From: Promethearchaeota archaeon | GTDB taxonomy: Archaea; Asgardarchaeota; Hermodarchaeia; Hermodarchaeales; Hermodarchaeaceae | Direction of reading: 5' to 3' | DNA length: 9,235 bases | Assembly: GCA_048938295.1 (NCBI GenBank) | Contig: JBHLMI010000048.1 | Location: 1 to 9,235, forward strand | Part shown: in pieces, positions 1 to 9,235 of the stretch | Layout of the letters: each line of letters starts with the position of its first letter | How positions within the stretch are numbered: the first letter of the stretch is position 1 | Program-made: the position numbers and the translations under genes | Notes under the pieces: generated by a model | Told to the model about the DNA's origin: nothing | Database searches by the model: none | The model's input: the letters and a program-made list of their open reading frames with translations, nothing else

Positions 1-31
1 ACGATCCGTTGCGGTGGACAATCACTTTTTT
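1..31 (+). repeat. Array repeat copy 1 (right arm only, truncated by window start)
   Basis: GTTGCGGTGGACAATCACTTTTTT matches the right arm of copy 4 (GTTGCGGTGGACGACCACTTTTT). Confidence 0.85.
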
Positions 32-55
32 CATGTTATTTGTGTGCGCGTTGGG

Positions 56-946
56 TTAGAGGTAGGTTTCGGGTTCTTTTCTGTCGGGGTAGCCTTTGTG
101 TAGATCGCTTTGTGATTTGAGAACGCGTTTGCTCATGACCCGTGCGCCGGTGGGACAGTTTTTGACGCAGGCACAGCACCAGATGCATGCATTATGGTCG
201 GTGGTAATCAACTGCAGGTTGTATCCGATCATGGGGGATGGATTGGATGACACATGTTGAATTCGAATTGCAGCAGTGGGGCAGACGTCTACGCACGTGC
301 CGCATTTGGTGCATTGGTCTTCATTGGTGGAGGGGGTGGCTAATGCGCCGTAGTCGTACCAGGTGAGATTGGCACGCATGGATAACGAGTACGGGGTTGT
401 ACCAGGAGGAGTGACGGGGGAGAGGTCCTCCATGGTATCGACCTGTGCATATTTGTCCCGGATTTGTTGGCCAAACGCTTTGGCTTTGGCGAGATCTTTT
501 GTGTCAGGTCGTCCATGGGCTGTAGGTACTTCAGGGACGCTAAAGGAGTGTTCGCATAGAAAAACCCCTGCAGCGATGGGTTGGAATCCCACCTCGGAGA
601 CAATGTCGCCTAGTTCATAGAGTGCGTCCTCGTAGGCGCGGTTGCCGTAGGTGACGACAATGACGACTGGGATTTTTTGTGCCCGTTTAGCTCCATAGGG
701 TTCCCTGTTACCTGTGAGTCGTCGGATCCGGTAGGCGGCTTCGGTGGGGACGCGTCCGGCGTAGACGGGCACGGAGATAATGGCGAGCTCATCGGTGAAT
801 TCCTTAAATTGCTGGGTGCGTGCACTGGGCGGAGTCAGGTCTATGTGTTCTATGGGGGCTTGGATGCCTTGGGCGATAGCTTCAGCTACCTTCCTTGAGC
901 CCCCGGTTGGAGAGAAACTGATGACTTTAACAGCTCTAATTTTCAA
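56..946 (-). CDS. Flavodoxin-domain / 2x[4Fe-4S] ferredoxin fusion protein (EFR1-like family)
   Basis: N-terminal flavodoxin-type motifs FSPTGGSRKVA, VPVYAGRVP, YGNRAYEDAL, EHS and GRPD. C-terminal CxxCxxCxxxCP motifs CTKCGTCVDVCP and CIWCCACVKNCP. TTG start with GAGGT 8 nt upstream. Confidence 0.9.
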   Translation of the reverse strand: MKIRAVKVISFSPTGGSRKVAEAIAQGIQAPIEHIDLTPPSARTQQFKEFTDELAIISVPVYAGRVPTEAAYRIRRLTGNREPYGAKRAQKIPVVIVVTYGNRAYEDALYELGDIVSEVGFQPIAAGVFLCEHSFSVPEVPTAHGRPDTKDLAKAKAFGQQIRDKYAQVDTMEDLSPVTPPGTTPYSLSMRANLTWYDYGALATPSTNEDQCTKCGTCVDVCPTAAIRIQHVSSNPSPMIGYNLQLITTDHNACIWCCACVKNCPTGARVMSKRVLKSQSDLHKGYPDRKEPETYL

Positions 947-982
947 TGGAATTTACCTCAATTGGGTTTGAATTTATTGATG

Positions 983-991
983 TTATAAAAA
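983..991 (-). promoter_or_regulatory. Archaeal-type TATA box (TTTTTATAA) for the 56..946 gene
   Basis: Reads TTTTTATAA on the minus strand, about 36 nt upstream of the start, with an SD-like GAGGT (955-959) between. Confidence 0.6.
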
Positions 992-1025
992 TCTAACATA
1001 CCTTGAGAGACGTTTTGTGCGGCAC

Positions 1026-1089
1026 GGGAGCGGGTGTATCACTCGGAAACACGGGTGTTGTCCCAGACTGGGGTGGACGCTCATTTTTT
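1026..1089 (+). repeat. Array repeat copy 2
   Basis: GGGAGCGGGTGTATCACTCGGAAACACGGGTGTTGTCCCAGACTGGGGTGGACGCTCATTTTTT. Centre contains CCCA-GAC-TGGG hairpin. Confidence 0.93.
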
Positions 1090-1208
1090 GTCTTCTAATG
1101 ATTTCGCAGTTTTCTAATATGTGCTTTTCCAGTGAAGAAGTTTTATCTGCCCTGGCTTTGTGGAATCTGTATTGAGTATTGATTTTGCATGAATTGGTGG
1201 AGTTTGTT

Positions 1209-1556
1209 ATGGCGTTGATTGATACGGCGAAAATCTTGGCGAAGGCGGGTTCCATTGTGTGTATCATTTTAGGGATTCTTGCTGGTGTGTTGAATGGTCT
1301 TGTGATGTATGAAGAGTTTAGTGGACGGCATGGTATTGCTGTTGAGACTACTCTGTGGTTTTCATTAGCGATTGTCGCGGTGGTCTTCGGGTTCATTATT
1401 CTGTTCTATTGTGTGCCGAGGATCGACCAGGATCGGCAAACAGCAGCCATTTATCTGATTATTTTTGGTGTGATAGCGGCGATTGGTTCGTTCCTTGTCG
1501 GTGGGGTGTTAATATTCGTCGCAGGAATTTTGTTGGCGGTGGAGCAAGCGCGCTAA
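1209..1556 (+). CDS. Small integral membrane protein (about 115 aa, 3-4 hydrophobic helices), function unknown
   Basis: The listed ORF 1179..1556 has a better start at ATG 1209, preceded by GGTGGAG. Long hydrophobic stretches, and it is the sole long + strand ORF between repeats 2 and 3. Confidence 0.8.
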   Translation: MALIDTAKILAKAGSIVCIILGILAGVLNGLVMYEEFSGRHGIAVETTLWFSLAIVAVVFGFIILFYCVPRIDQDRQTAAIYLIIFGVIAAIGSFLVGGVLIFVAGILLAVEQAR

Positions 1557-1700
1557 TTGAACGAAGCCTAATAACCTGATGACGTGGGCATTGAGCTCGT
1601 AAATATCCCAAGCCAATTTTGTTAACGATGTGACTTTAGCCTCCCAACTCTTCTGAGGGATTCCTTGCAATGGACAGCTTGGGAGCCTTTTGTGCGATAC

Positions 1701-1769
1701 GGGAGCGGTTGTATCACTCGGAACACAGGTCCTGTAGACTATCCGTTGGGGTGGACGACCACTTTTTTT
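1701..1769 (+). repeat. Array repeat copy 3
   Basis: GGGAGCGGTTGTATCACTCGGAACACAGGTCCTGTAGACTATCCGTTGGGGTGGACGACCACTTTTTTT. Also shares the upstream flank TTTTGTGCG..ACG (1688-1701) with copy 2 (1013-1026). Confidence 0.95.
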
Positions 1770-1817
1770 GCTAGGTTTTAGGATGGCAAGAGTAATTAGA
1801 AACTAAAGAAGAATAGG

Positions 1818-2921
1818 TTGAGTGGTGTTGGTATGGCACGTGTGGGGTTGGTGGTTTGTTTCATGGGGCTATTGTGGGTTTCGTTGATGGGGGGGCTTCC
1901 GGGGGGAATGTTCGGTGTTGGTGCGGTGGAGGCGCAGAGTGGGGGGTTCAATTTTGTGGCTTATGGGGATACGCGGTCGCATGAGCTTCCGGCGGCGGTG
2001 TCACCGGTGCATGATGGGTTGGTGGCGATGTATCTTGGAGAAAATCCGGAGTTTGTGTTGCATACAGGGGATATGGTGATGGCGGGAGGGATCTGGGATC
2101 AGTGGGTGGAGTTTAACGATTCGATTCAAGGGATTTGGGCGGCAGGAATTCCTTTCTATGGTGTGGTGGGAAACCACGAAAAATACACGGGAACTTGGTA
2201 TGTGTATGATGAGGGATTGAACAATTATACCACCTTTTTTGATTTCGGTGATGCAGTGGATGTGCCCGGTGAAACAGAATTACAGTACGCTTTCACTTAT
2301 GAGGGCGTTCATTTCGTGTTCTTGAATACCGAGGATTACTTCGACGATATGTTTGGGGGTACGCAGCAGTTTAACTGCTCAAGTGGGCAAATGAATTGGT
2401 TATCCAGTTATTTGGTGACTGTCGATCCCGAGGAGTTTCTTGTGGTAACGTTTCATCGCACCGCTTGGTCCATTCTCTTTGATCAACCAAATCGCTGGGA
2501 GGAAGCGCAAACGATTCGTGATGACTTCCATGACCTGTTTGTGCAGTACGATGTCGATTTAGTCTTAATGGGCCATGATCATTATTATTATCGCACTCTG
2601 CGGGATGGGATCTATTATGTCACGACGGGGGGTGGAGGAGGCCCACTGGCAGAAATTGATGTGACGGCTCCGATTTGGCAACCAGGTGATGTGGCCGCTT
2701 CGGAGTACCATTACTGTAACATCAAAGTGAATTCCACCGATGTCACCGTGACAGCATACACATCCGACCACAGTCTGTTAGATTCTTTCAGTATTGAAAG
2801 ACCGAGTAACCCTCTCCCTGGCCCACCCATTGAACTTCTTGTCCTGGGTCTCTGTGTCGTTACCATCATTGTCATTATCATTGTCGTTGTTTTGATCCTC
2901 TATTGGCGAAGGAAAAGCTGA
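1818..2921 (+). CDS. Secreted, C-terminally membrane-anchored metallophosphoesterase (calcineurin-like superfamily, purple-acid-phosphatase-like)
   Basis: Five metal-ligand motif blocks: YGDTRS, HTGDMV, VVGNHE, VTFHR and GHDHYY. Hydrophobic N-terminal signal, Pro-rich linker, C-terminal TM helix and WRRKS tail. The start could be ATG 1833. Confidence 0.9.
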   Translation: MSGVGMARVGLVVCFMGLLWVSLMGGLPGGMFGVGAVEAQSGGFNFVAYGDTRSHELPAAVSPVHDGLVAMYLGENPEFVLHTGDMVMAGGIWDQWVEFNDSIQGIWAAGIPFYGVVGNHEKYTGTWYVYDEGLNNYTTFFDFGDAVDVPGETELQYAFTYEGVHFVFLNTEDYFDDMFGGTQQFNCSSGQMNWLSSYLVTVDPEEFLVVTFHRTAWSILFDQPNRWEEAQTIRDDFHDLFVQYDVDLVLMGHDHYYYRTLRDGIYYVTTGGGGGPLAEIDVTAPIWQPGDVAASEYHYCNIKVNSTDVTVTAYTSDHSLLDSFSIERPSNPLPGPPIELLVLGLCVVTIIVIIIVVVLILYWRRKS

Positions 2922-2948
2922 GGCCCGATACAATTAGCGCTATTGGAA

Positions 2949-2955
2949 TTTTTTT
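2949..2955 (+). terminator. Oligo-T tract (T7) 28 nt after the phosphoesterase stop; candidate archaeal-type terminator
   Basis: TTTTTTT directly downstream of TGA 2919-2921. Confidence 0.4.
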
Positions 2956-2995
2956 GTGTCCGATGAAAATTAATTGGATGTCCTGGAGTGGCCGA

Positions 2996-3058
2996 GGGAG
3001 CTTGGGTGTATTATTCGTGACAAGTTAATTACCGGGTTGCGGTGGACGACCACTTTTT
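2996..3058 (+). repeat. Array repeat copy 4
   Basis: GGGAGCTTGGGTGTATTATTCGTGACAAGTTAATTACCGGGTTGCGGTGGACGACCACTTTTT. Both arms are conserved and the centre is divergent. Confidence 0.92.
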
Positions 3059-3074
3059 GTTGATATTTGTGGGA

Positions 3075-3254
3075 TTATGCCTGTTCTTCGATGATCCAGA
3101 GGTGGCTGGTTTTGACTGAGCTGGGGAAATCGGGACCGATCGCGGGAATGATGGTGATGAGCGTGCCTTTGAGGGTGTTGAGGAAGTCCTCCAGTTTTTG
3201 TTTGTCGTGATTCATATCGATAGGGAGTTTGTGAACTTTGTAAGTTGACACCAT
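3075..3254 (-). CDS. 59-aa hypothetical protein missed by the ORF track: MVSTYKVHKLPIDMNHDKQKLEDFLNTLKGTLITIIPAIGPDFPSSVKTSHLWIIEEQA
   Basis: Hand-translated ATG(3254) to TAA(3075), 60 codons. SD GGGTGA at 3259-3264 and TATA TTTTTATAT at 3289-3297. It fills the unit between repeats 4 and 5. Confidence 0.85.
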   Translation of the reverse strand: MVSTYKVHKLPIDMNHDKQKLEDFLNTLKGTLITIIPAIGPDFPSSVKTSHLWIIEEQA

Positions 3255-3288
3255 TTACTCACCCAAGAGGTGTATCGGAGGATTGGAC

Positions 3289-3297
3289 ATATAAAAA
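3289..3297 (-). promoter_or_regulatory. Archaeal-type TATA box (TTTTTATAT) for the 59-aa gene
   Basis: About 35 nt upstream of ATG 3254, with a GGGTGA SD in between. Confidence 0.6.
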
Positions 3298-3317
3298 CTT
3301 GGAGTAGCGTAGACAAA

Positions 3318-3380
3318 GGGAGTAGGCGTATCACTTGGAAACACGGGTGTTTTTCGATTGGTTTGTGTGGATAACCATTT
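3318..3380 (+). repeat. Array repeat copy 5
   Basis: GGGAGTAGGCGTATCACTTGGAAACACGGGTGTTTTTCGATTGGTTTGTGTGGATAACCATTT. The short T-run overlaps the methyltransferase stop codon (3379-3381). Confidence 0.9.
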
Positions 3381-4035
3381 ACTTATCATGCGAGGTGTTG
3401 CGGGCATAGAGTTTCATATGCCAGATGAAGGTTTTTTGATGGACGAGTTGTGTGAAGCCGGTGTTTTTTAGCAGCGTGTCAATTGCTTTGACGGGGTGGA
3501 TGAAGGTTCGGAAGGGGTGGCGTCGTAGCCATAGGATGAAATTTTCCCATCCGATGGAGAGCTTGCTCGTTAAATTCGTCCGCGGGATTACGATGCCAAA
3601 GAATGTGCGAGCAAGGGCGGCGGATCGTTCAACGAGGGTTTGCCAATCGTCATAGCAACAGATTACTTTATCGAGGGTGACAATGTCGGTGGGGGAGAGG
3701 GTGGAGGCGATGTCGACGAAATCCCCATGATGGTAGCTAATGCGGTCCGTATGACCTTGTCGAGTGGCTTCCTCCTTTGTCGCTTCGATATAAGCCATGG
3801 AGGCTTCCACGTTAATGCTGTGGCGTAACCCAGCTTGTAGTAATTCGTGTTGAATTATGCCGATGCCACCACCAATATCGAGTAAGGTTTTTCCCTGGAC
3901 CCCTTGGCTTTTGAGGGCATCAACGAGTAGGTGCGTGGTTTTATTCATGCCCTTCACCCGATAGGTGCGGAGTTCCGCTTCAGCTACACTCCGATCGAAG
4001 GTCGTTTCAAGTACCTGATACTGACAACAGCCCAT
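3379..4035 (-). CDS. Class I SAM-dependent methyltransferase (substrate unknown; superficially BchM-like size and layout)
   Basis: Motif I LLDIGGGIG, acidic post-motif (VEAS), HGDF, and motif IV-like DIVTLDKVICCY. N-terminal MGCC. Confidence 0.88.
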   Translation of the reverse strand: MGCCQYQVLETTFDRSVAEAELRTYRVKGMNKTTHLLVDALKSQGVQGKTLLDIGGGIGIIQHELLQAGLRHSINVEASMAYIEATKEEATRQGHTDRISYHHGDFVDIASTLSPTDIVTLDKVICCYDDWQTLVERSAALARTFFGIVIPRTNLTSKLSIGWENFILWLRRHPFRTFIHPVKAIDTLLKNTGFTQLVHQKTFIWHMKLYARNTSHDK

Positions 4036-4120
4036 GATTCATGCTTCCATCTATTTAGGATAGAATAAGGTAACGCAACAAACTAGTTAATATCTCATTT
4101 GGAAAATCTGTACGGAAAGA

Positions 4121-4190
4121 AGCCTGGGTGTATTATGGCGTAAACATGGGTGCTGCACGATGCAGTTGGGACAGACGACCATCTTTCTTT
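4121..4190 (+). repeat. Array repeat copy 6
   Basis: AGCCTGGGTGTATTATGGCGTAAACATGGGTGCTGCACGATGCAGTTGGGACAGACGACCATCTTTCTTT. Centre hairpin CTGCA-CGA-TGCAG. Confidence 0.88.
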
Positions 4191-4342
4191 CAAGATGAAT
4201 TAGTCTCATAGTTTAGAAGAATAACACCCCGGTCTTTGAAGGCGCATCTCATAGAAATGAAGTTATTAGTATCTCAACTGACATTAAGGAGTGAAATTCA
4301 GCTCTACCAAGAATAGATGGAGGCGTTCCTCTGTCACAGTTT

Positions 4343-4960
4343 ATGAATGGAGAAAGAGTGAAGCCGAATCAAGTCCCGTATTTGGTTGCGTTTTTTGCCA
4401 GAGAGTATATGCCCAAAATAAAGGCGTTTCTCGAGACGGAGTATCCGACTCGTCAAGAAGGCGTAGAGGGGTTCACAACCGTGATGCGGGCAATTTATCC
4501 GCAGGTCTATCAGTTGCAACAGCAGTTACCCGAATCCCTAGCAGAAGAGATGATTCTAGAGCTTCCTGCGTTTATTAGTCTTCATGAGTGGGAGAAAGAG
4601 CCCAGAACATGGAACAAGGGAAAGAAAAAGGCGCTCACCGCGTTTCTGGAAGGACACGAGACGCCTGCCGATGAGTACGGGAATCCTGAGTTTCTTAGTG
4701 GTATGTTTGTCTCGATTATGATGTTATTGAATTCAACCTATAAGGGGCTAATCTCGCTAAGAGGTCTTTGCAGCAACTTCGAAGATGCCGTATACACTGA
4801 ATCCTATTTTAGCTCAGTTTATCATCAGTTTGAATATGAGATTTTTGTCAAAGGGCTCCTCAAAACCCTTAGCGATCTCAGAGGAATTCTTCCGTTAATC
4901 TATGAGATTGAGCGAAAACTCGCACTGTATCCACCCACTGGGGAACTGGAAAAGATGTAG
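4343..4960 (+). CDS. Hypothetical 205-aa soluble, probably helical protein; no family recognised
   Basis: Longest ORF between repeats 6 and 7, with protein-like composition and no recognisable motif. Confidence 0.75.
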   Translation: MNGERVKPNQVPYLVAFFAREYMPKIKAFLETEYPTRQEGVEGFTTVMRAIYPQVYQLQQQLPESLAEEMILELPAFISLHEWEKEPRTWNKGKKKALTAFLEGHETPADEYGNPEFLSGMFVSIMMLLNSTYKGLISLRGLCSNFEDAVYTESYFSSVYHQFEYEIFVKGLLKTLSDLRGILPLIYEIERKLALYPPTGELEKM

Positions 4961-4993
4961 GGAAACTAGAAAAAAGTACTACCTTTCAATTAA

Positions 4994-5061
4994 AGCCTAG
5001 GATTGTATGTCTGAACAGCAGGAGTTGTAGGATCCTCTGGCATGGACGACCACTTCTTTTT
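4994..5061 (+). repeat. Array repeat copy 7
   Basis: AGCCTAGGATTGTATGTCTGAACAGCAGGAGTTGTAGGATCCTCTGGCATGGACGACCACTTCTTTTT. Right arm intact, centre contains palindrome AGGATCCT. Confidence 0.85.
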
Positions 5062-5120
5062 CCCTTCGGTATTCTCCAAGCGGGGAAGTGTTAGTATGAC
5101 AGATGTTGGGAAGGACCTCT

Positions 5121-5163
5121 GCTGCAACCTTTAAAATGCAGCTCGCCAAAAACGAGAGAAAAA
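5121..5163 (-). terminator. Candidate terminator region downstream of the DUF4256 gene
   Basis: Minus strand has two T5 tracts (5148-5152, 5159-5163) and an inverted repeat GCTGCA/TGCAGC (5121-5142). Confidence 0.35.
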
Positions 5164-5189
5164 GCGTTGAAATTCGAAAATGTCAGAGT

Positions 5190-5756
5190 TTAGACTCGTA
5201 GCGAGCCGCGGAAGGCTCTAGAGCTATAGTATGAAGGCGCACTGTTGTGATAGACGAAGACGGTGTTGTAGCGGCGATCGCAAAAGAGGGCGCCGCCGAG
5301 TTTTCTGATATCAGGAGGGGTTTTTATCCAGCTTGAGGTCTTCGCATCGAACTGTCCGAGTTTCTGTAACGCTCGATATTGATCTTCGGTTAGAAGCTCA
5401 ATGCCCATAGCGGTGGCCATATCGATTGCGTTATTTTTTGGTTTCGCTGATTTCCGTGCGTCCTGCGCTTCACGGTCGTAGCAAACATTTCTGCGGCCTG
5501 TTGGAGTTTCTGGTGAACAATCATGAAAAATGTATTCACCCGTCTTTTTATCATGACCCACAACATCTGGTTCACCGCCAGTTCGTTCCATTTCGTTGAG
5601 TGACCACAGTTTGTCAGGATTCGCTTTCAACTTTGTTTGGATGTTAGCCCATTCAATCCCTTGATGGCGGTTCATATTGTTCTCAAAGCGGGCTTTCAAC
5701 ACGCGGAGTAGTTCTTCATGTTGTTTTGGTGACAACTCCTTTTTGAGTTTGCTCAT
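5190..5756 (-). CDS. DUF4256 family protein
   Basis: Recognised by family-typical strings: LKARFENNMNRH, LWSLNEMERTGGEPDVVG, RRNVCYDREA, MGIELLTE.QYR.LQKLG.FD.KTSSW, GGALFCDRRY..VFVYHN, RAFRGSLRV. Confidence 0.9.
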   Translation of the reverse strand: MSKLKKELSPKQHEELLRVLKARFENNMNRHQGIEWANIQTKLKANPDKLWSLNEMERTGGEPDVVGHDKKTGEYIFHDCSPETPTGRRNVCYDREAQDARKSAKPKNNAIDMATAMGIELLTEDQYRALQKLGQFDAKTSSWIKTPPDIRKLGGALFCDRRYNTVFVYHNSAPSYYSSRAFRGSLRV

Positions 5757-5778
5757 ACTCTGTAGTAATCGTCCCGTG

Positions 5779-5787
5779 TTTATAAAA
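5779..5787 (-). promoter_or_regulatory. Archaeal-type TATA box (TTTTATAAA) positioned for a leaderless DUF4256 transcript
   Basis: TATA centre about 26 nt upstream of ATG 5756, with no SD motif in between. Confidence 0.65.
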
Positions 5788-5942
5788 GCATCAACGCAAG
5801 GGTGACATTGACTTTCTAGCGTATGATCATGTAAAAGATAATAGCTCTATTTTCGTCAGAAAGGCATTAAAGCATACGCTTGGAAACCAAGTTCTTCTAG
5901 AGGACCCAGTGAGGATACCAGGGGAGATGATGTGTGCTGTAA

Positions 5943-5979
5943 GGAGTCTGGGTGTATGATGGTGGAAACTCGAATGTTG
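5943..5979 (+). repeat. Array repeat copy 8 (left half recognisable; right arm degenerate or lost)
   Basis: GGAGTCTGGGTGTATGATGGTGGAAACTCGAATGTTG aligns with copy 6 (CTGGGTGTATTATGGCGTAAAC). The expected GTGGACGACCAC-T-run is not recognisable at about 5990-6005, where the next gene's stop lies. Confidence 0.7.
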
Positions 5980-6003
5980 GAAGCCAAAATTTCATATGAT
6001 GCC

Positions 6004-6822
6004 CTATTGACGGAATTTGGGGAAATGGAGTTTGCCTTCTTGTTTCAGGTAGGAAAAGATCATGAGAACAAAGAGAACAATGGTGATGCCAACAAAAATG
6101 ATGGTGGAAATAACTGAAAACAATTCAAGAGGAGGAGGGAAAAGAGGAATCTGAGGTCCTGTGACCCGGCAGTAGTTTATGTAGAGTTGGGCATCAGGTT
6201 TTCCAGGGGCTTCGATTAGCTGCCAGTGGATGCGATAGTGGTGATAGGTGGCGTTAATATTAATTAGATCATGGGTGATGGTGGTGTAGTTGGTCCAGTA
6301 ACCGGGAGTTTCATTGATGTGTGGGTGGAGGGTGAGGAGATAGGAGTGAGTACCGTTCGGGAGAGGGGTGTCTGATGTGATGCTGGCGTTGAGCCCATAA
6401 AGTAGGATGAGGGCGGACGGTCCGGTGGCGCAACTTCGAAACTGGATGGTGACTTGGTTGATGTCCAAGGGGATGAAGTCTTGCCAGAACATAATGGTGT
6501 GCTCTTGGTTTGCGCGGGTGGGTTGCAGGAACAGGGTATCAGCATCTCCACCATTTTCGGTATCATTGATGAGATGGTATTGTTCTTTGGGTCCGGTGGT
6601 ATCGCCGGTAAAATGCCAGAAGGCGGGTTTAGTTGCGTTATGATCATTACCCTCCCAGCCACCAGGTTCTGTTATGGTGAAATCCCAATTGGCTACTAAA
6701 TCAACGGGAACAGGAAGTTGCTTTGACGCCCTAGAGAGAGGAACTTGGTTAGTTATCGGCGTCAGGGAGAATATGGTCAGTAAACTAATCAGGAGTAGAC
6801 AGGTTGTGAGCGATTTTTTCAT
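6004..6822 (-). CDS. Secreted / C-terminally membrane-anchored hypothetical protein (272 aa), probably beta-rich extracellular domain
   Basis: Signal peptide MKKSLTTCLLLISLLTIFSL, several N-x-S/T sequons (NATK, NDTE, NASI, NGTH, NETP no, NYTT, NATY), PPPLEL then a TM helix and basic tail. SD GGGTGA at 6829-6834. Confidence 0.82.
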   Translation of the reverse strand: MKKSLTTCLLLISLLTIFSLTPITNQVPLSRASKQLPVPVDLVANWDFTITEPGGWEGNDHNATKPAFWHFTGDTTGPKEQYHLINDTENGGDADTLFLQPTRANQEHTIMFWQDFIPLDINQVTIQFRSCATGPSALILLYGLNASITSDTPLPNGTHSYLLTLHPHINETPGYWTNYTTITHDLININATYHHYRIHWQLIEAPGKPDAQLYINYCRVTGPQIPLFPPPLELFSVISTIIFVGITIVLFVLMIFSYLKQEGKLHFPKFRQ

Positions 6823-6975
6823 TCCTTTTCACCCGCTGGAGATGCTATTTCACCGCTGGAATGTGAGGATAAATGTTCTTTACCGGTTTAAAGAACGCAT
6901 TGGTCCTTATGTGAATATAAAGAAAAGATTGAGAAAAACCGAATACACCATTTCGTGCAGGACCCCTCAAAGATT

Positions 6976-7027
6976 GAGCCGAGAATGTCAATGACCATGA
7001 GTTGATTGGAGTTGACGACCACTTTTT
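6976..7027 (+). repeat. Array repeat copy 9 (shortened centre)
   Basis: GAGCCGAGAATGTCAATGACCATGAGTTGATTGGAGTTGACGACCACTTTTT. The right arm GACGACCACTTTTT is exact and ACCATGAGT is shared with copy 10. Confidence 0.8.
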
Positions 7028-7081
7028 GTATGCTATTTTTTAACTTGGATGTCTTATATGTGATAGGTCGACGAGGAGGCC

Positions 7082-8869
7082 TTGTGTACGTCAACTGCTG
7101 TGCTCATGAAGTTGTTGGAAACAGCGCCGTGGCGCTATGACCAGGGGATTGATTTTCTCACACTGGGTGTTGATTCGAAGCTTAAAAAACGGATTGCAGA
7201 TGAATTTATCTTTCCGTCGGATGATGTTCTTGAAATAGGGAGTGGAACGGGTTCCTTGGCGTTGTTGTGTGCCCAGAAAGGGGCGCAGGTGATGGGCATT
7301 GATGTATCACCTACAATGATTGCATTAGCTCAAACCAAAGTGGCGAAGGCCCGGTTGTCGGATCGGGTTCAGTTTCGGGAAATGGACCTGACGGAAATTG
7401 ACCAGTTGCCCGATGCCTCCTTTGATGTGGTGATTGCCACCTTGGTGTTTAGTGAATTGTCGGAGGTGGAGCAGTTTTATGCGCTCCGTGAAGCGTGGCG
7501 GCTGCTTCGCCCAGAGGGACGGCTAATCATTATGGATGAAGTTCGACCCCAATTGCTCCGCAAGATGCTTCCCTACTACATGTTACGTGTCCCTCTCACA
7601 ACATTCACTTTTCTATTGAGCCAAACAACGACCCATCGGGTGAAGAATCTCGAAACAAAGCTCGAAATATCCGGATTTCGAATTACCATGCAAGAGCAGC
7701 ATTTACTAGATTCGATTATGTTACTCGTCGCCACCAAACAACCCCAACGACCCATTGAAGCAGCAGGTCCTCGTCTGTTTCCAACGGTTCACGTTGGATC
7801 ACGAATGAAGTATGTGGCTGAAACTATTTTTCGTTGGGTAGGTGTCCCTATCACACCCGGGTATATCGCTGTGGGACAGCCCTCCGATGAAAGCCCTGTT
7901 CTAGTCACATGCAATTATGACTTGACGGTTCGCCGCGTTCTAAAAACACTTCAACACGCACAGGTTGATTGCTTTCTACTGGTAGCTCCAACTCGGGGAA
8001 TCAACGTGTGGTGTGCCTCTTGTGGTGGAGATTTTACGGCACACTCCGTTATCGCGGCAATCAAGCTTAGTGGCATTAACAACCTGGTGCAGCACCGACA
8101 TTTGTTTCTACCTCAACTGGCAGCACCGGGAGTTGACCCCGATGTGATTAAGGAGGAGACGGGATGGTCAGCACAGTTTGGACCAGTGAAAGCCAAAGAT
8201 ATACCCACCTACTTGAAGAATGGAGCACAGAAAACCGAGGCCATACGCACTGTACGATTTCCGGTGTCAAAGCGCTTAGAAATGGCAAGTCTATATGCGA
8301 TCATAATTTCACTCCTTGCAATCCCCATCAGCCTAATCTTTGCACCCCCCAAGCTCCTCACGACCCTAGGAATCATTTGGCTGCTTATCTGCGGTGCCTA
8401 TCTTCTTTCGCCATATCTCCCGAGTAGATCTGGGTTCGTGAAAACGCTGGTGTATGGCATCTGTGCCATCTCCGTTGTCCTACTTGTGGCCCTTTATACC
8501 ACGGGGAGCCTGTTAGGATTGCCATGGGAACTTCTTCTAACGATTCTTGTTTTGCTAATCTTAGGGGTTGATTTCAACGGGATGACTCCGATACTACCCA
8601 GCGACCTCGGTCGTCTACTCTATGGCCGAGGTCACTCAGAAATGCCCTTCTTCACAGGAAAGTATCCGCTTCAACCCTATGGACGAATCACCGAGGATGT
8701 GGAGTCATGTATTGGATGTGGGATGTGCGTACAAGTCTGTCCAAGGAATGTCTACCAGTTAGATAAAGCAAGACGTAAGGCGGATTTAATACACCCCAAG
8801 GACTGTGTCAACTGTAATGCTTGTGTTCATCGATGCCCCGCACATTGCCTTCACATTATCAAATCATGA
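7082..8869 (+). CDS. Fusion: class I SAM methyltransferase + HgcA/CdhD-like corrinoid-binding domain + ~4 TM helices + HgcB-like 2x[4Fe-4S] ferredoxin (HgcAB-like fusion with N-terminal methyltransferase)
   Basis: EIGSGTG motif I in a UbiE-like N-terminus. SPVLVTCNYDLT, TRGINVWCASCGGDFT and LPQLAAPGV match the corrinoid domain of the HgcA/CdhD family. A hydrophobic block follows, then CIGCGMCVQVCP (8708) and CVNCNACVHRCP (8804). The exact start (TTG 7082 vs ATG 7106) is uncertain. Confidence 0.85.
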   Translation: MCTSTAVLMKLLETAPWRYDQGIDFLTLGVDSKLKKRIADEFIFPSDDVLEIGSGTGSLALLCAQKGAQVMGIDVSPTMIALAQTKVAKARLSDRVQFREMDLTEIDQLPDASFDVVIATLVFSELSEVEQFYALREAWRLLRPEGRLIIMDEVRPQLLRKMLPYYMLRVPLTTFTFLLSQTTTHRVKNLETKLEISGFRITMQEQHLLDSIMLLVATKQPQRPIEAAGPRLFPTVHVGSRMKYVAETIFRWVGVPITPGYIAVGQPSDESPVLVTCNYDLTVRRVLKTLQHAQVDCFLLVAPTRGINVWCASCGGDFTAHSVIAAIKLSGINNLVQHRHLFLPQLAAPGVDPDVIKEETGWSAQFGPVKAKDIPTYLKNGAQKTEAIRTVRFPVSKRLEMASLYAIIISLLAIPISLIFAPPKLLTTLGIIWLLICGAYLLSPYLPSRSGFVKTLVYGICAISVVLLVALYTTGSLLGLPWELLLTILVLLILGVDFNGMTPILPSDLGRLLYGRGHSEMPFFTGKYPLQPYGRITEDVESCIGCGMCVQVCPRNVYQLDKARRKADLIHPKDCVNCNACVHRCPAHCLHIIKS

Positions 8870-8934
8870 ACGTAAAATGATGGAACCATGAGTGTTGTAG
8901 ACGAACTGTGGCGGTTGATAGCCACTTTCTTTTT
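8867..8934 (+). repeat. Array repeat copy 10
   Basis: TGAACGTAAAATGATGGAACCATGAGTGTTGTAGACGAACTGTGGCGGTTGATAGCCACTTTCTTTTT. The left end coincides with the fusion gene's TGA stop. Confidence 0.78.
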
Positions 8935-9045
8935 CAAAAAAGATTGATGGGGAGAATACGGCTGAACTCGTTGTGGTGAGCATATTAGGCAAATTATTTC
9001 TGGGGGTTGTCGTGTAGTGGGTAAAGGTAGGTGGTTGGTTCGTTG

Positions 9046-9235
9046 ATGGAGATTACGTTGGGTGTGTTGTTTTGGGGGTATGTGATGGCGTACTGTGTGC
9101 ATGTCGTCGAGGAAGCGGCTGTGGGTGAAGGGTTCATTGAGATGATGCGTACCACCTTTCATCCAGACTATACGGGTCGGATGTTCTTTGGATTTAACCT
9201 CATGATTTTTTTGGTGTTTGTCGCTGGGATTGTAG
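9046..9235 (+). CDS. HXXEE-domain membrane protein, 5' part only (runs off window)
   Basis: Hand-translated open frame MEITLGVLFWGYVMAYCVHVVEEAAVGEGFIEMMRTTFHPDYTGRMFFGFNLMIFLVFVAGIV... has HVVEE after a hydrophobic helix. In-frame TAG at 9028 bounds it upstream. Confidence 0.8.
   Translation, partial: MEITLGVLFWGYVMAYCVHVVEEAAVGEGFIEMMRTTFHPDYTGRMFFGFNLMIFLVFVAGIV

Follow-up and report, generated by a model that had tools for sequence, protein, structure and literature searches.

The hairpin predicted within the repeat at positions 1701-1769 is not a feature of this DNA; the element that underlies it is a new variant of gene-capture arrays. On sequence evidence, the ~85-nt repeat derives by duplication from the 3' trailer of the 16S rRNA gene, and its pairing partner is the 16S leader, not the repeat itself. 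We consider it probable that these trailer duplicates stand at the joints between gene cassettes, which may be moved by a homology-guided process and not by the reading of a hairpin.

The window, that is, the whole stretch of DNA analysed, is the entire 9,235-bp contig C31 of a 2.5-Mb archaeal genome bin (G000; completeness, 91.6%) that encodes RadA and an aldehyde:ferredoxin oxidoreductase. Ten copies of the repeat occur in the window, all on the + strand and one in each gap between adjacent genes, and the genes themselves have unrelated functions and use both strands (Table 1). Beyond the ten window copies, the genome has only four more, namely two on contig C48, a single one on C33 and a doubtful one, for a total of 14. 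Twelve of these lie on the two array contigs (C31 and C48), and the C33 copy marks the distal flank of the array. Using a covariance model (CM) built from sequence only, we collected 99 copies from 13 genomes of the genus, which are co-oriented on each contig. Right arms retain high conservation even where the rest of the copy has been lost. At the E-value threshold, an Rfam search of the window and C48 placed the repeat in no family, the only matches being the 16S rRNA and a sub-threshold C/D-box hit. Derivation from a tRNA fragment was rejected, a tRNA search of the neighbouring loci having given none.

Three side observations concern the extent of the array. The C33 copy (L001:9822-9895, - strand; G000:C33:15821-15887) lies alone between radA and a methyltransferase gene, and in G002 the same methyltransferase/AFOR flank comes after the last repeat of the 16S array, which suggests that the array end in G000 has been joined to radA by rearrangement or misassembly. 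On L045, L052 and L040 (G007:C226, G010:C1 and G001:C393) a right-arm subtype, GACGCCCAC or GATGCCCAC, replaces GACGACCAC and may represent a second array or a second exchange group. A weak repeat-like match within an endonuclease III-type gene (L003:7352-7436, - strand; G000:C47) is probably due to chance.

Table 1 Repeat copies and cassettes of the window, with the actin-tail copies of contig C18 (positions are those of the window unless a contig is named)
Feature	Position	Strand	Observation
Repeat copy 1	1..32	+	Truncated by contig start; centre and right arm only; nhmmer and CM matches
Cassette A: flavodoxin-like domain and 4Fe-4S ferredoxin	56..946	-	Pfam; first slot behind 16S in G002; follows C in X6
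Repeat copy 2	1013..1093	+	CM 53.8 bits; closest to 16S trailer among window copies
Repeat copy 2, duplex with 16S leader	1013..1093	+	-67.9 kcal/mol, z -6.2
Cassette B: small protein, no Pfam family	1179..1556	+	Homologue elsewhere in the G011 array
Repeat copy 3, full extent	1688..1771	+	CM 53.5 bits; leader duplex z -1.7
Copy 3 core with proposed hairpin	1701..1769	+	RNA MFE -23.8 kcal/mol, z -1.51; absent with DNA parameters
Copy 3 right arm (GGGTGGACGACCAC) and oligo-T run	1749..1769	+	Most conserved block; cassette-exchange zone; column identity 0.86-0.98
Cassette C: metallophosphoesterase	1818..2921	+	Pfam; homologue at another position in G009
Repeat copy 4	2986..3061	+	CM 43.2 bits; X6 contig joins 3056 to 27
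Repeat copy 5	3305..3386	+	CM 52 bits
Cassette E: SAM methyltransferase	3379..4035	-	Pfam; homologues in G002, G009 and G012 arrays
Repeat copy 6	4106..4191	+	CM 58.2 bits
Cassette F: no Pfam family	4343..4960	+	Order G, F, E in G002; E, F, G here
Repeat copy 7	4984..5062	+	CM 41.1 bits
Cassette G: DUF4256	5190..5756	-	Pfam E 2e-90
Repeat copy 8	5931..6008	+	CM 38.3 bits, model positions 2-75 only; right arm degenerate
Cassette H: no Pfam family	6004..6822	-	Pfam search
Repeat copy 9	6950..7031	+	CM 33.7 bits; left arm degenerate
Cassette I: methyltransferase, CdhD-like domain and ferredoxin fusion	7082..8869	+	Pfam; neighbours differ in G008 (first slot), G009 and G011
Repeat copy 10	8856..8934	+	CM 42.2 bits
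Actin-tail copies	C18, flipped: 2178, 2772, 3413, 4449, 5169, 5908, 6468, 7740	reverse	

The origin of the repeat was traced on C48, which starts within the 16S rRNA gene. The mature 3' end of the 16S rRNA (GGATCACCTCCT, at about L002:1447) is followed by a 9-bp hairpin and then by the founding copy, copy 0, at 1499-1580, ~50 nt behind the mature end and past the small covarying trailer hairpin. The same layout of 16S gene, trailer hairpin, repeat and array recurs in G012, G014, G008 and G002, giving five genomes in all, in each of which the hairpin varies in sequence and keeps its pairing. The 16S 5' leader, assembled in five relatives, holds a well conserved C/A-rich block of ~85 nt; the assembly of G000 itself yielded neither the 5' half of the 16S gene nor its leader. 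Copy 0 is complementary to this block along its whole length (~75 nt, G.U pairs included), and the duplexes formed by six copy-0 sequences reach -58 to -69 kcal/mol, compared with -43 to -50 +/- 5 kcal/mol for shuffled trailers (z -2.3 to -4.6). When the G014 leader and trailer are cofolded, they form a single long interrupted helix (-105 kcal/mol), in which no bulge-helix-bulge motif is recognizable. Own leader-trailer pairs are not more stable than cross-genome pairs among the three or four genomes with both halves, so that no signal of co-evolution is seen in this set. The blocks paired with the leader (GGGTGTAT, CGGAAA, GGTGTTG, GTTG, GGTGGACG and the T-run) coincide with those conserved across the repeat family, and leader-paired columns are better conserved than the others (0.787 versus 0.678, p 0.004).

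From its position behind the 16S gene, its complementarity to the leader and its oligo-T end, copy 0 is predicted to be the 3' strand of a leader-trailer helix of the 16S precursor together with its terminator, a role that would explain why the repeat is G/T-rich on one strand only and where its conserved blocks lie. Several right arms are likewise flagged as terminator-like, that of copy 3 at 1748-1765. Leader complementarity is lost further along the array (z of -6.2, -1.7, -1.7, -1.1, -1.9, -0.8, -1.1, -1.0 and +1.2 for copies 2 to 10), and we therefore regard the downstream copies as duplicates, not as working trailers. The RNA element envisaged in the original prediction is thus borne out in the founding copy, with the 16S leader and not the repeat itself as its partner. 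A site of a cassette array that can be traced to a known functional sequence, here a putative 16S processing-stem strand plus terminator, would have a datable origin and a polarity. Separately, the 16S genes carry insertions: ~100 nt in the helix-45 region in G000 (L002:1318-1425, G000:C48), and in G014 the gene spans 3.6 kb (L013/L059, G014:C71:619-4212) and contains an ORF with a LAGLIDADG-like GFWDAEGG motif.

The units between the repeats behave as cassettes. Those of the window recur in other genomes at different positions and in different orders, permuted without inversion (Table 1), and their genes point either way (25 on the array strand and 22 opposite). The first slot behind the 16S gene is occupied by a PD-(D/E)xK-like gene in G000 and G014, by cassette I in G008 and by cassette A in G002. 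Among pairs of junctions from different genomes with one shared neighbour (n=62), 23 shared only the upstream and 39 only the downstream cassette, and none shared both. A contig from an independent marine-sediment metagenome of another study (X6) joins position 3056 directly to 27, so that cassette A follows C, with the joint in the T-run; reading of the metagenome runs (X3-X6) was restricted to the parts of the window with contig cover. Single-linkage clustering of cassette bodies was left out, as it lumped unrelated units.

Linkage between repeat and cassettes points to where the exchange happens. The left arm and middle of the repeat travel with the left cassette (identity 0.70; baseline, 0.52-0.61), the right arm is linked to neither neighbour, as is also seen for copy 3, and the T-run travels with the right cassette (0.81 versus 0.73). 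Because the three parts are linked in this way, the exchange point is placed at or beside the right end of the repeat, at the boundary between GGACGACCAC and TTTT. The recombination site that had been predicted therefore stands as the place where cassettes join and exchange, but not as a site recognized through a hairpin.

Two cassettes deserve separate mention. Cassette I, which combines SAM methyltransferase, corrinoid-type CdhD-like and 4Fe-4S ferredoxin parts, is mobile, occurring in four genomes with different neighbours; in G009 it is followed by F. The DUF4256 cassette (window 5237-5852) has a summed contig depth of 47-278 in four sediment metagenomes, compared with <10 for the rest of the window, and sequence at least 90% identical to it is therefore carried by far more abundant organisms, which suggests a recent cross-lineage transfer.

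Every repeat is accompanied by a polar skew in base composition. In the window (1-9235) and in arrays L038-L056, the 16S-sense strand is C-depleted for ~500 nt beyond each copy, whichever way the gene points. Across 57 cassettes, the array-strand GC skew averages +0.37 in the first 100 nt past the right arm and declines to ~0.05 by 600-800 nt, and the AT skew weakens from -0.31 to about -0.05. Genes on both strands show the same gradient. It peaks at third codon positions (+0.58 and +0.63 close to the repeat, -0.02 and +0.24 at a distance), does not depend on slot number and is seen in the distal flank too. Because it is independent of gene direction and of slot and strongest at third codon positions, the skew appears to be mutational: the 16S-sense strand loses C beside every copy. 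This depletion upholds the earlier idea of a strand-specific process, although the asymmetry of folding offered in its favour reflects base composition. Mutational footprints of this kind, with synonymous sites depleted of C in a polar, orientation-independent way, are rare, and this one could reveal how cassettes move.

The same footprint occurs at a second locus. Downstream of the actin gene on contig C18 of G000 (reverse strand), eight same-direction copies of the last ~100 nt of actin are found, and each is followed by a positive GC skew as in the 16S array. The actin-tail repeat is unrelated in sequence to the 16S-trailer repeat. Since two unrelated repeats share one footprint, the mechanism appears to be guided by homology to the tail of the anchor gene and not by one site sequence, and we predict that it operates behind other anchor genes as well.

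Searches for an enzyme covered the main recombinase and transposase families. For integron integrase (TIGR02249), the best match in the genome falls in a 313-aa Xer-like ORF and is split into two pieces, which score 87 and 63 bits where the cut-off is 265 bits. No Y1 HUH transposase of the IS200/IS605 type (PF01797) was matched in the genome, and control genomes did give matches; a serine recombinase (PF00239) was not found; and the IS91-type Y2 transposase model (PF04986) was silent in this genome and in the control genomes alike. Matches to PF00589 in six genomes lie only on contigs unrelated to the arrays. One Xer-like gene is present in each genus genome examined and is the only conserved tyrosine recombinase, unlinked to the arrays; a second tyrosine recombinase, 8 kb from the distal flank on C33, was set aside as it is absent from that place in relatives. 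In the 99-copy consensus, read on both strands for R''/R' boxes (RYYYAAC / GTTRRRY), the right half has a GTTGGGG-like word and no RYYYAAC partner. The right arm contains only a 4-bp dyad (GTGG-ACGA-CCAC), with a purine run on one side and the T-run on the other, and is unlike the AT-rich inverted repeat beside xerA. That inverted repeat (27 nt; L006:2540-2595, G000:C32), which lies within an extended AT-rich spacer, 200 nt downstream of the Xer-like gene, is a possible dif site or origin-like element.

The first-slot gene of G000 and G014 is a candidate cutting enzyme. Its product, P0001 (L002:1603-2862, - strand; 419 aa), matches no family of Pfam or NCBIfam. It contains a PD...ExK motif and resembles PD-(D/E)xK nucleases in its C-terminal half (atlas score 0.91, TM 0.52-0.65). 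As a universal array enzyme it was rejected: it occurs in G000 and G014 only, G012 having a remnant and G018 a distant relative, which makes it a cassette and not a fixed component.

Starting from what the comparisons above show (where the unit comes from, its role at cassette joints, where exchange takes place and the polar skew), we propose that cassettes would be inserted or exchanged by homology-guided copying or break repair at tail copies, with no hairpin-reading enzyme. The newly made or displaced 16S-sense strand would be single-stranded, and prone to deamination, for some hundreds of bases downstream of a tail copy, and such transient single-strandedness with cytosine deamination would leave a polar C depletion. 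We offer this combination of homology-guided insertion, a transiently single-stranded sense strand and a mechanism independent of site sequence tentatively. Conservation of the right arm and an exchange point at one end count against it, since a sequence-specific enzyme would account for both better than plain homologous recombination does. More speculative again is the wider proposal that Hermodarchaeota might possess an undescribed, integrase-free means of capturing single-gene cassettes behind highly expressed conserved genes (16S rRNA, actin), with copies of the tail and terminator of the anchor gene as sites and a strand-specific single-stranded intermediate that would mark every cassette with the polar C-depletion gradient.

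The strongest rival, which we regard as unlikely, is a site-specific recombination of double-stranded DNA by an enzyme acting in trans. The right arm (GGGGTGGACGACCAC followed by the T-run) would be the core site of an Xer-like or unrecognized recombinase or nickase encoded elsewhere; cassettes would be excised as circles and re-inserted at any copy, the site would be unfolded and the left arm would be an accessory or a passenger. Such an enzyme better accounts for the right arm alone staying conserved, often as the sole surviving part of a copy, and is consistent with an exchange point concentrated at the right edge of that arm, with the permutation of co-oriented cassettes without inversion and with the Xer-like gene in every genus genome examined. 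Against this, Xer/dif sites have two ~11-bp inverted arms around a ~6-bp spacer, and the right arm has only its GTGG/CCAC dyad, unlike also the repeat adjacent to xerA. None of the arrays has a recombinase gene linked to it, the actin array has the same skew with a wholly different repeat and a 500-nt mutational gradient is left unexplained by simple strand exchange.

Homology-guided movement is also to be weighed against a passive history, which seems improbable, in which integrative elements, each bringing its own integrase and a copy of the tail of the target, inserted successively at the 16S 3' end as in tRNA-gene islands, later lost their integrases and left the copies as dead attachment-site scars. 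Although the repeat does correspond to the 3' end of a target gene, the copies become more degraded along the window and the occupant of the first slot differs between genomes, the units are single genes of 0.3-1.9 kb, ~100 of them contain no integrase remnant, cassette order is permuted with adjacency never kept, the skew does not vary from slot to slot, the distal flank included, and the right arm is under apparent constraint.

Still less credible is that the copies are working RNA or transcription elements, either terminators or insulators against read-through from the strong rRNA promoter or processing sites, retained for that function, with recombination incidental: each copy does end in a small hairpin and a T-run in the 16S sense that is flagged as terminator-like, oligo-T is the termination signal of archaeal RNA polymerase and the G-rich non-template strand downstream resembles that of R-loop-prone termination zones, but half of the cassette genes point the opposite way and cannot be terminated by the T-run, left arms are conserved yet have no part in termination and the permuted cassette order is left unexplained.

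Equally remote is the original prediction, in which a + strand hairpin with an extrahelical A is read as single-stranded DNA by an enzyme like integron integrases or HUH transposases. The pairing itself was described correctly: in copy 3, 1704-1712 pairs with 1755-1763 (one C.A mismatch and one G.T wobble), A1713 is bulged and 1714-1719 pairs with 1749-1754, copy 2 was confirmed to pair in the same way, and the hairpin is the RNA-parameter MFE of both (-22.0 kcal/mol for copy 2 and -23.8 kcal/mol for copy 3). Folding energy against dinucleotide shuffles, named beforehand as a check, is no better than chance with RNA parameters (z -0.24 for copy 2 and -1.51 for copy 3), since 77/200 and 15/200 shuffles, respectively, fold as well. 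With DNA parameters, the hairpin forms in no copy (z -1.27 to +0.69, both strands). Copies 4-10 adopt RNA folds of other, unrelated shapes, and the mean z of the family is about -0.4 to -0.5 on both strands with DNA or RNA parameters. The fold was said to be specific to one strand; the minus strand does fold less well, but so do its shuffles, which attributes the asymmetry to G/T-rich base composition.

Covariation in the larger set, the other check named, likewise gave the hairpin no support. Across the 99 copies, the 15 proposed pairs are formed in 63.5% of cells, compared with 63.1% when partners are shuffled (126/500 shuffles reach the observed value), and the covariation score is 0.071 versus 0.072 for shuffles. 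The inner helix is broken in most copies. T1709-A1758 of copy 3 had been matched with G1034-C1080 of copy 2 as a compensatory pair; over the 99 copies, this position is G-C in 9, U-A in 2 and unpaired in 53. RNAalifold predicted 0 pairs for the family, and a scan of all column pairs on either strand found no stacked covarying columns. Two other candidate structures were rejected: small hairpins within its variable central part, which average z -0.33 with DNA and +0.18 with RNA parameters, and a possible CCGG...CGG stem in the middle block, which shows no consistent compensation by eye and no signal when all columns were scanned. The consensus left and right arms are somewhat complementary, with slid controls pairing in 34-48% against their 63.5%, so that a weak ancestral inverted repeat in the arms is conceivable.

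The intra-repeat hairpin is a by-product of low-complexity G/T-rich sequence, unconserved and unstable as DNA. That copies 2 and 3 can fold, that the arms exceed slid controls and that the + strand is treated differently beside each copy all speak for the predicted hairpin, but many functional-looking junctions retain the right arm only, which makes it impossible there; and judged by its own two checks, energy and covariation, it is already refuted. A structure-recognized single-stranded site of the attC or HUH kind finds no support either, there being no covariation or energy excess in the repeat and no IntI, Y1 transposase or R''/R' boxes among the searches above. The folded, structure-read site should be dropped as stated, which spares hairpin probing and attC-type assays.

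Several known systems share parts of this arrangement, and searches of the literature turned up no earlier account of an array behind the 16S gene in an Asgard archaeon. The processing stem of archaeal pre-rRNA, cut by the splicing endonuclease, has in common with the array a copy 0 right behind the 16S gene, ~75 nt of leader complementarity and the oligo-T; it differs in its bulge-helix-bulge motif, which was not located here, and in that the downstream copies are decaying DNA duplicates with no leader partner of their own. The actin-tail array resembles the 16S array, with same-direction copies of an anchor tail separating accessory genes and with the same skew, and differs in its unrelated repeat and protein-coding anchor. 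REP/RAYT elements and IS200/IS605 ends are also short intergenic repeats with some self-complementarity and a strand polarity, but they are dispersed, whereas the repeat here forms one array with no Y1 transposase and no stable hairpin. In tandem islands at tRNA and tmRNA genes, such as the tycheposons of Prochlorococcus, the attachment-site repeats are the 3' end of the target gene. Like the array, these islands have direct repeats copied from the end of a conserved RNA gene (its 3' end), with variable cargo in between; here, by contrast, no element-borne integrase was found, the units are single genes and their order is shuffled, not stacked.

The closest comparison is with integrons. The array shares with sedentary chromosomal integrons and CALINs, the archaeal ones (PMC9668308) included, mostly single-gene cassettes with one polar site at the downstream end of each, exchange at the downstream edge of the site, a permuted order and a variable first slot. 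It differs from them in having no IntI, R''/R' boxes or conserved hairpin, in genes that point either way (25 versus 22), in a site that copies the tail of the neighbouring gene and in the polar mutational skew. As far as sequence can tell, the array works like a sedentary integron yet departs from four of five integron criteria, the remaining one being a single site per cassette with exchange at its downstream edge. Integrons with attC sites and CALINs are reported to be enriched in Asgard archaea (Ghaly et al. 2022, PMC9668308); if capture in the array described here needs no integrase, some of the integrase-less Asgard arrays may not be integrons.
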